From positions 8,006-72,005 of the forward strand of contig JASBTD010000016.1 in the NCBI GenBank assembly GCA_030148605.1: a stretch of 64,000 nt of DNA. The letters run 5' to 3'. A model generated the notes under the pieces. It was not told the DNA's origin, searched no databases, and saw nothing but the letters and a program-made list of their open reading frames with translations. This document shows, piece by piece, positions 10,478 through 10,645 of this stretch. Each line of letters starts with the position of its first letter. The first letter of the stretch is position 1. Source of the stretch: Erythrobacter sp. GTDB taxonomy: Bacteria > Pseudomonadota > Alphaproteobacteria > Sphingomonadales > Sphingomonadaceae. The translations under genes and the position numbers were made by a program.

Positions 10478-10645
10478 CCGCTCCCTACGCCGGTTTTTGT
10501 TTGTTTGCATGTCGAAGAGCCGAAAACCGGTTCCCACTTTTCGGCGCCATGCAAACTGCCGGATCAGGTTCAACGGGTCGGGCGCTGCGACACGCCCCTC
10601 TCAGCCACTATCCTTGAAAGGACTCGCTGGCTCCCCGGGGATGAG
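10478..10645 (-). ncRNA. TPP riboswitch with enlarged P5 loop
   Basis: Minus strand reads GGGGAGCC...GGCUGAGA...GACCCGUUGAACCUGAUCCGG-[65 nt]-CCGGCGUAGGGAG upstream of thiC. Confidence 0.92.

Follow-up and report, generated by a model that had tools for sequence, protein, structure and literature searches.

A TPP riboswitch aptamer upstream of thiC carries a member of a conserved alphaproteobacterial hairpin family in its L5 loop

We identified a TPP (THI-box) riboswitch aptamer upstream of thiC in which the space between the two arms of P5, normally a 6-nt loop, holds 65 nt comprising a short linker, a two-tier hairpin and an A-rich tail. With its extended P5, this aptamer adds a new structural variant to the TPP riboswitches. 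The explanation that we favor, and hold to be fairly probable, is that it is a working, thiC-controlling riboswitch whose P5 has been lengthened by a tolerated and selectively maintained hairpin. Tight TPP binding is held to depend on the L5–P3 contact, and the length of L5 is nearly invariant; a natural 54-nt hairpin at this site offers a ready-made test of how much tertiary contact a riboswitch needs and of whether a strand of an internal loop can replace a hairpin loop. The relevance is moderate and mainly for riboswitch specialists, and the case points to an undescribed, structured hairpin family whose apex is invariant across three orders.

The aptamer lies on the reverse strand of the 64-kb stretch of DNA analyzed here (the window), 39 nt upstream of the thiC start codon (Table 1). 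Alignment with the Rfam model RF00059 covered the full model (window 10465–10647, model 1–105; 47.5 bits, E = 2.1e-8), and its sole large departure was 65 nt in place of 6 between the arms of P5, which bears out the initial annotation of this region as a TPP riboswitch whose L5 is longer by ~60 nt. The ligand-binding motifs listed in that annotation were all found at their expected places, namely CUGAGA (J3-2), ACCC, GAACCUGAU (P4/J4-5) and CGUAGGGA. Because the score lies below the curated RF00059 gathering score of 54.3 bits, a shortfall due to the insert, the aptamer went unreported in a whole-window Rfam scan at the gathering threshold. The cost of the insert is apparent from two near-identical relatives, the insert-free L206 scoring 63.0 bits and the insert-bearing L205 scoring 43.5 bits. 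The further P5 extensions described below, L208 (42.8 bits) and L018 (41.2 bits), also score below the threshold, and extended-P5 TPP aptamers thus form a blind spot at the Rfam gathering score.

Of the helices that build the two arms and the three-way junction, P2, P3, P4 and P5 were retained in both the minimum free energy (MFE) and centroid folds, and their pairing is kept in the two other insert-bearing lineages, L205 and L225. P1, which we assigned by inspection, takes a neighboring register (UGCUC/GAGCG) in the MFE fold. The pair probability of P5 is 0.90 with the insert and 0.96 when a 6-nt loop is substituted. P3, the helix on which L5 normally docks, carries a 13-nt insertion in the Rfam alignment; its length varies among relatives and does not covary with the insert, being long in the window and short in L205. 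The downstream gene encodes a product 94% identical to NCBI-named ThiC proteins with Pfam domains PF13667 and PF01964, the best matches (94%) coming from MAGs labeled 'Altererythrobacter sp.'; a look-up of the exact protein gave no record. The organism belongs to the Erythrobacteraceae, within Sphingomonadales. A 677-aa ORF starting at TTG 10554 was rejected as an artefact of ORF definition, the true thiC start being ATG 10425.

Table 1. Features of the thiC leader in the window (strand-specific positions are written 5′ to 3′ where two ends of a motif are given).
Feature	Position	Strand	Details
TPP (THI-box) riboswitch aptamer including insert	10465–10647	−	Rfam RF00059
P1 outer helix	10475–10643	−	CAUCC 10643–10639 / GGAUG 10479–10475; by inspection
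P3 with distal extension	10603–10632	−	AGCCA/UGGCU, then GUCCU/AGGAU, loop UUCA
CUGAGA (J3-2)	10604–10599	−	
ACCC	10578–10575	−	
GAACCUGAU (P4/J4-5)	10571–10563	−	
P4 and P5 5′ strands	10559–10568	−	CCUG 10568–10565, CCGG 10562–10559
L5 region between P5 arms	10494–10558	−	65 nt (normally 6): linker CA, two-tier hairpin, A-rich tail
Hairpin of the GGGAACCGG-loop family	10503–10556	−	Family model R1 and helix table
Outer stem	10556–10548 / 10511–10503	−	GUUUGCAUG / CAUGCAAAC
Inner stem	10545–10538 / 10526–10519	−	GCCGAAAA / UUUUCGGC; hairpin bulge UCUUCGA
Family-invariant apex	10523–10541	−	AAAAGUGGGAACCGGUUUU; GGGAAC at 10535–10530
A-rich single strand adjoining P5 3′ arm	10494–10502	−	AAACAAAAA; unpaired in fold; candidate replacement for docking adenines
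P5 3′ arm and conserved P4-containing segment	10482–10493	−	CCGG 10493–10490; CGUAGGGA 10489–10482 (holds P4 3′ strand)
Expression platform	10434–10460	−	Anti-SD GUUCCCUUUC 10460–10451 / SD-like GAAAGAGAGAG 10444–10434
thiC (phosphomethylpyrimidine synthase)	8521–10425	−	634 aa, intact; translation; ATG 10425

Between the aptamer and the gene, the predicted leader fold contains a hairpin formed by an anti-Shine–Dalgarno (anti-SD) element and an SD-like sequence, and UUCCCU has an alternative partner in AGGGAG at the 3′ end of the aptamer. Equivalent platform elements are found in L205 and L206, and in L225 the SD lies directly within the 3′ strand of P1. A scan of positions 10350–10800 found no promoter and no intrinsic terminator; given the lack of an intrinsic terminator, regulation most likely acts on translation, and Rho-dependent termination may contribute. 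With TPP bound and P1 formed, the anti-SD GUUCCCUUUC would be free to sequester GAAAGAGAGAG, and thiC translation would fall; without TPP, AGGGAG would pair with UUCCCU and leave the SD free.

Folded alone, the insert (10494–10558) reaches −26.5 kcal/mol (z = −4.9), with none of 200 shuffled sequences as stable, in agreement with the two-tier fold drawn at first sight of the sequence. Its core, AAAAGTGG(G/A)AACCGGTTTT, places it in a hairpin family that occurs across Alphaproteobacteria and to which we refer by its GGGAACCGG loop. Aligned copies share variable outer and inner stems, an invariant apex, a 3′ bulge and an A-rich tail (GAAAACAAAGA), and a TAGAGC or (C)TAGAGC 5′ flank is frequent among them. 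In an alignment of 55 copies, columns 16–34 are invariant or nearly so; the apex reads AAAAG-UGGGAACCGG-UUUU, that is, AAAAG-UGG(G/A)AACCGG-UUUU, and the window matches it exactly at 10541–10523. RNAalifold on the same copies gave 15 pairs; compensatory changes are seen in 8, and all four Watson–Crick types occur at several paired positions. The window hairpin has the two-tier stem and 3′ bulge that, with this covariation, define the family. Against the family covariance model R1 it scored 51.5 bits (E = 1.7e-12), a value that is partly circular since the window copy is among the 55 sequences behind the model; L205 (49.3 bits) and L225 (41.0 bits) lie outside that alignment, although the L205 hairpin is identical to that of the window. 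At its flanks, the window copy has the A-rich tail (AAACAAACAAAAA) and carries CAGUUUGC instead of TAGAGC.

We then surveyed the distribution of the family. A blastn search of PLSDB with the 65-nt insert returned 209 places in 150 plasmid records, mostly from Rhizobium, Agrobacterium and Sinorhizobium but also from Sphingobium, Sphingomonas and Rhizorhabdus, and the matches usually fall in unannotated intergenic DNA. In IMG/VR, at least 120 contigs or loci contain the pattern AAAGNGGRAACCGGNTTT. Overall, the family ranges over plasmids of Rhizobiales, Rhodobacterales and Sphingomonadales and over GTA- or phage-like contigs. Searching PLSDB with the whole chimeric aptamer matched the hairpin part only and revealed no plasmid-borne chimeras. 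Closer to the window the picture differs: a scan with R1 of the window and 85 Sphingomonadales loci (1.61 Mb) yielded three matches, all of them L5 inserts, and no second copy was found by R1, regular expressions or blastn in the 64-kb window or in 1.55 Mb from relatives. In the thiC neighborhoods of 80 relatives and the window, blastn-short and regular expressions gave only chance 11–15-mers. The initial suspicion of a dispersed palindromic repeat therefore holds for Alphaproteobacteria at large, where 8 of 15 pairs covary, but not in the sense of a multi-copy element in this lineage, which offered no other copy in the DNA searched.

Some copies stand in tandem arrays of 2–3 or more units with a period of ~55–63 nt (L127:5546–5740 and 6814–6960; L107:720–860; L163:2690–2840; L189:6170–6310; L221, reverse strand, ~9650–9800), and the stems are alike within one array and different between arrays of the same contig. 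In GTA-like or phage tail clusters (for example in IMG/VR contigs L104, L142, L174, L190, L191, L196 and L204), the hairpin lies on the coding strand, after the stop codon of a tape-measure-like ORF and ~25 nt before the start of a GTA-tail-like ORF, both functions being assigned by eye. Such intra-operon placement recurs in many genomes, and the coding-strand position in the GTA-like clusters fits an element co-transcribed with its neighbors.

Rfam holds no family for the hairpin itself. Two of its models, RF02600 (Brucella sRNA CI27) and RF02599 (CI408), describe complete Brucella transcripts (167 and 435 nt, respectively), and each embeds a copy of this hairpin, GCAUG..AAAG-CGGGAACCGG-CUUU..CAUGC; the hairpin matches them partially, with 16–29 bits, below their thresholds of 59.8 and 398. 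REP and BIME palindromes are likewise short, imperfect and intergenic, sometimes tandem and often transcribed with neighboring genes, whereas the present hairpin has an apex invariant across orders, stems that vary within a replicon, a low copy number and no GTAG/CGTC tag recognizable by eye. The Brucella Bru-RS repeats are also short, imperfect intergenic palindromes. Full-text literature searches with the motif strings GGGAACCGGTTTT and GTGGGAACCGG and their complements returned no bacterial paper, and no description or known function of the family was found in the literature searched. Cuckoo RNA, of the alpha-r14 family, was ruled out as the identity of the hairpin, since its loops carry CCUCCUCCC (PMC4615179).

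The insert is also present in metagenomes. Logan contigs from separate studies span it (runs X1, X4, X8, X9, X13, X15 and X17), and an assembly artefact, a concern raised in the initial annotation, is excluded because these runs are independent. Lagoon (X1) and ballast-water (X4) contigs cross the insert with no differences, and soil (X8), rhizosphere (X15) and sediment metatranscriptome (X17) samples supplied further carriers. A pond strain (X9), ~97% identical, shows 23 differences in 10100–10900 but none in 10449–10681, and its run holds a single contig with the hairpin. A hot-spring contig (X13) retains the insert minus 3 nt of the A-rich tail, deleted at 10497. The metatranscriptome contigs cover the leader but also, at low depth, the divergent gene, so that they leave transcription unproven and provide no 5′ end. 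Among the X1 and X4 contigs over 10505–10558, lagoon word depth was 30–40-fold higher at the hairpin core (1294–1850 versus 43), and loose ends on both sides of the core reveal other, commoner organisms in the lagoon sample that carry family copies in other contexts.

Next, we asked how common such inserts are among thiC leaders of Sphingomonadales. A TPP aptamer was present at 79 of 80 species-representative thiC loci, and 78 of these 79 have P5 and L5 of canonical length with a 6-nt loop, the exception being L018 (+13 nt). Close relatives L206, L207 and L228–L231 are canonical, and L208 is longer by 23 nt. Taking the 79 species-representative aptamers together with L206, L207, L228–L231 and L208, a 6-nt L5 is found in 84 of 86 other leaders. 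L018 (UBA2683; 9815–9946) has a CCCG/CGGG stem, a UUGACA cap and a 3′ bulge CUUA; L208 (P0005 lineage; 2261–2408) has a 5-bp stem, an AUUGUA cap and a 3′ bulge GCACACA; both have long P3 helices. Like the window aptamer, they lengthen P5 and place an unpaired strand beside its 3′ arm, but their extensions are short, capped by an L5-like 6-nt loop and unrelated to the GGGAACCGG family. The extra stem and unpaired 3′ strand in both imply that extension of P5 has been tolerated more than once. We considered the 28-nt L5 of L208 as a decayed copy of the window insert; the alignment was unconvincing, and we treat it as a separate extension.

The hairpin itself recurs at the same site in a sister species, represented by three assemblies (L205, L209 and L210), whose thiC is 87% identical to that of the window at the nucleotide level. 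In L205 the hairpin is identical at 53 of 53 positions, and in L209 and L210 a lone A-to-G difference gives a U·G pair. Just outside it, the linker is CC in L205 and CA in the window, and the tails are CAUUAGAAAA and AAACAAAAA, respectively. Since 105 of 294 fourfold degenerate thiC sites differ between the window and L205 (36%), 53 unchanged positions would be expected under neutrality with P ~7e-11, and the hairpin is under purifying selection. The adjacent tail, spacer, platform and thiC start have all diverged, which makes it unlikely that the leader was transferred recently. A third carrier, L225, came from a targeted metagenome scan, and both the 5′ half of its aptamer and its thiC fragment are Sphingomonas-like (~80% to L076 and L061); the hairpin in its L5 matches that of the window at 47 of 54 positions and includes a compensatory change from A-U to U-A in the outer stem. 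Among the carriers, the second hairpin of the P2–P3 arm has changed with its pairing preserved.

As judged from these comparisons, the best reading is an insertion that was already in place before at least two Erythrobacteraceae species diverged and that selection has since preserved. A family member did land in a tertiary-contact loop, as first proposed, yet the divergence of the sister species and the variant in L225 speak against a recent hit. The initial annotation had also considered an ancient, genus-wide long loop unrelated to any repeat; the insert did prove to antedate the species, yet it does not occur throughout the genus and does have relatives in a repeat family. Its distribution is not simply vertical: L206 resembles L205 more closely than the window does (88.9% versus 86.8%) yet lacks the insert, which requires loss, recombination between leaders, or independent or repeated site-specific gain. 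The 5′ halves of the aptamers in L205 (2771–2939) and L206 (2125–2233) are identical over ~56 nt, and L205 is window-like from P5 onward; this mosaic appearance suggests that thiC leaders have recombined among related species.

Independent and fairly recent insertions of a site-preferring mobile element between the 5′ arm of P5 and L5, with hairpin identity reflecting a shared active source, would explain why Erythrobacteraceae share the insertion site with a Sphingomonas-like leader that has its own lineage's thiC and 5′ aptamer half, why lineage-typical L5-like sequence is left 3′ of the insert, and why the distribution within the clade is patchy, the window and L205 having the insert and L206 and L207 lacking it. 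Moreover, the 47/54 identity between window and L225 hairpins hardly exceeds the 46/54 identity to unrelated family copies. We nevertheless consider such a history very improbable: neither the 1.61 Mb of Sphingomonadales DNA nor run X9 contains another or source copy, no transposase is evident, and the usual TAGAGC flank is absent, while the derived flanks GUU..GC / GCAAAC, common to the window, L205 and L225, are unseen in other copies. By eye, no terminal inverted repeats, target duplication or GTAG/CGTC tag could be recognized at the insert; the CCGG pair that flanks it is P5 itself.

How the aptamer copes with the insert bears on whether the switch still works. Two adenines of L5 dock in the minor groove of P3 and are required for ligand binding (PMC6414600), docking is reported to be essential for metabolite binding, with a docking-deficient mutant binding weakly (PMC6414600, PMC4775224), and the contact engages only with TPP bound (PMC11751092); the literature thus supports the initial statement that L5–P3 docking is established. 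If the insert broke this contact, thiC would be constitutively on or off, or weakly regulated, and the element would be neutral or not cleanly excisable. The reported need for docking is in line with such damage, as are the strong constraint implied by a 6-nt L5 in nearly all other leaders and the fast evolution of the tail adjoining P5. Across 36% fourfold-site divergence, however, the carriers keep the aptamer core motifs, P1–P5 pairing and the SD-sequestering platform, the arm hairpin retains its pairing, thiC is intact, the hairpin itself is under purifying selection, and L018 and L208 provide other natural P5 extensions. A dead aptamer should have decayed at that distance. A crippled switch is therefore quite unlikely in our estimation, and the disabled state offered first among three outcomes in the initial annotation is disfavored; the outcome of the three that agrees with the data is that the aptamer tolerates a long inserted domain. 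Conservation in relatives suggests that the switch still works, and we infer that the window aptamer still binds TPP.

In the working riboswitch that we favor, the inserted hairpin would fold independently and stack on P5, leaving the secondary structure of the aptamer unchanged, and the former L5 site would become an asymmetric internal loop. This predicted loop has 2 nt on the 5′ side and 9–10 A-rich nt on the 3′ side. Adenines of its 3′ strand probably replace the two L5 adenines in the P3 minor-groove contact, as the initial annotation had proposed; docked in this way, they would let TPP close both arms. The assignment follows from the 3′ strand being A-rich in all three lineages and L5-like in two of them. 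The tail differs by lineage (AAACAAAAA in the window, CAUUAGAAAA in L205 and AACUGACUCA in L225): in L225, CUGACUCA, CUGAC(UC)A, resembles the CUGACA loop of its insert-free relatives, and in L205, UUAGAAAA, UUAG(AAAA), resembles the UUAGCA loop of its own, which suggests that old L5 nucleotides persist 3′ of the insert. The window tail has no L5 remnant and matches the usual tail of the hairpin family; given this and the within-species variation in X13, constraint on the tail looks weak. An alternative 8-bp pairing joins AAAACCGG, made of tail and P5 3′ arm (10490–10497), to CCGGUUUU in the hairpin (10523–10530), and could compete with P5 and the inner stem. Its counterpart is 9 bp long in L205 and just CCGG in L225.

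Selection on the hairpin may extend beyond its structure. Identity of the stems at 36% neutral divergence exceeds what structural selection alone predicts, which hints at another, sequence-specific role. The hairpin could bind a conserved protein or RNA in trans, or an intramolecular partner, and have been co-opted as a second input or to change the set-point of the switch. Several observations would suit such a role. Across three orders the 19-nt apex shows little or no variation, whereas the stems covary, a pattern that suggests recognition of a specific sequence. Replicons hold few copies (209 places on 150 plasmids), unlike the case of selfish REP elements; coding-strand positions within operons, such as the GTA-like tail clusters, are common; and all 53 nt, stems included, are frozen between two species. 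In addition, the loop GGGAAC (10535–10530) is perfectly complementary to GUUCCC (10460–10455, reverse strand) in the anti-SD, and insert-bearing L205 also has GUUCCC where insert-free L206 has GUCCCU. This match may be a coincidence, because UCCCU is needed in any case to pair with AGGGA, so that complementarity to UUCCC is partly forced, and L225 lacks a GUUCCC platform. With only three lineages found and no known function of the family in the literature searched, we regard a co-opted role of this kind as possible but doubtful. Somewhat less likely still is the fuller version, in which the hairpin is an undescribed, widely conserved alphaproteobacterial RNA module, its apex bound by a trans factor or RNA partner, that has been built into P5 so that thiC integrates TPP and a second signal. 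That signal might come from a bound factor, for instance, or from a GGGAAC:GUUCCC contact between loop and anti-SD. If true, this would be a natural composite riboswitch made from a mobile RNA module.

Compared with canonical TPP riboswitches (RF00059; E. coli thiM and thiC), the window aptamer has the same core motifs, P1–P5, position upstream of thiC and SD-sequestering platform, but its docking loop has become an internal loop beneath a 54-nt hairpin, with 65 nt between the P5 arms instead of 6. P3 of TPP riboswitches is known to vary in length, being long in eukaryotes and some bacteria. In those variants, too, a peripheral helix tolerates large insertions while the core is kept, and P3 of the window is itself extended; the difference is that theirs is the receiver of the contact, P3, whereas the insert in the window sits in the adenine donor, P5/L5.

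Two further observations concern riboswitches and RNAs around thiC and in the window. In L011, L023, L024, L025, L207 and L208, a small ORF of ~130–140 aa separates thiC from the TPP riboswitch, which there heads a two-gene unit; the ORF has no Pfam match on record in L207 and L208, and the window has no such ORF. At the gathering threshold, the only Rfam matches in the window were a glycine riboswitch aptamer (RF00504; 63109–63208, reverse strand, 61.4 bits) and a tRNA (50680–50750, reverse strand, 71.6 bits), whose anticodon loop UUCCCAA marks it as probably tRNA-Gly (CCC).
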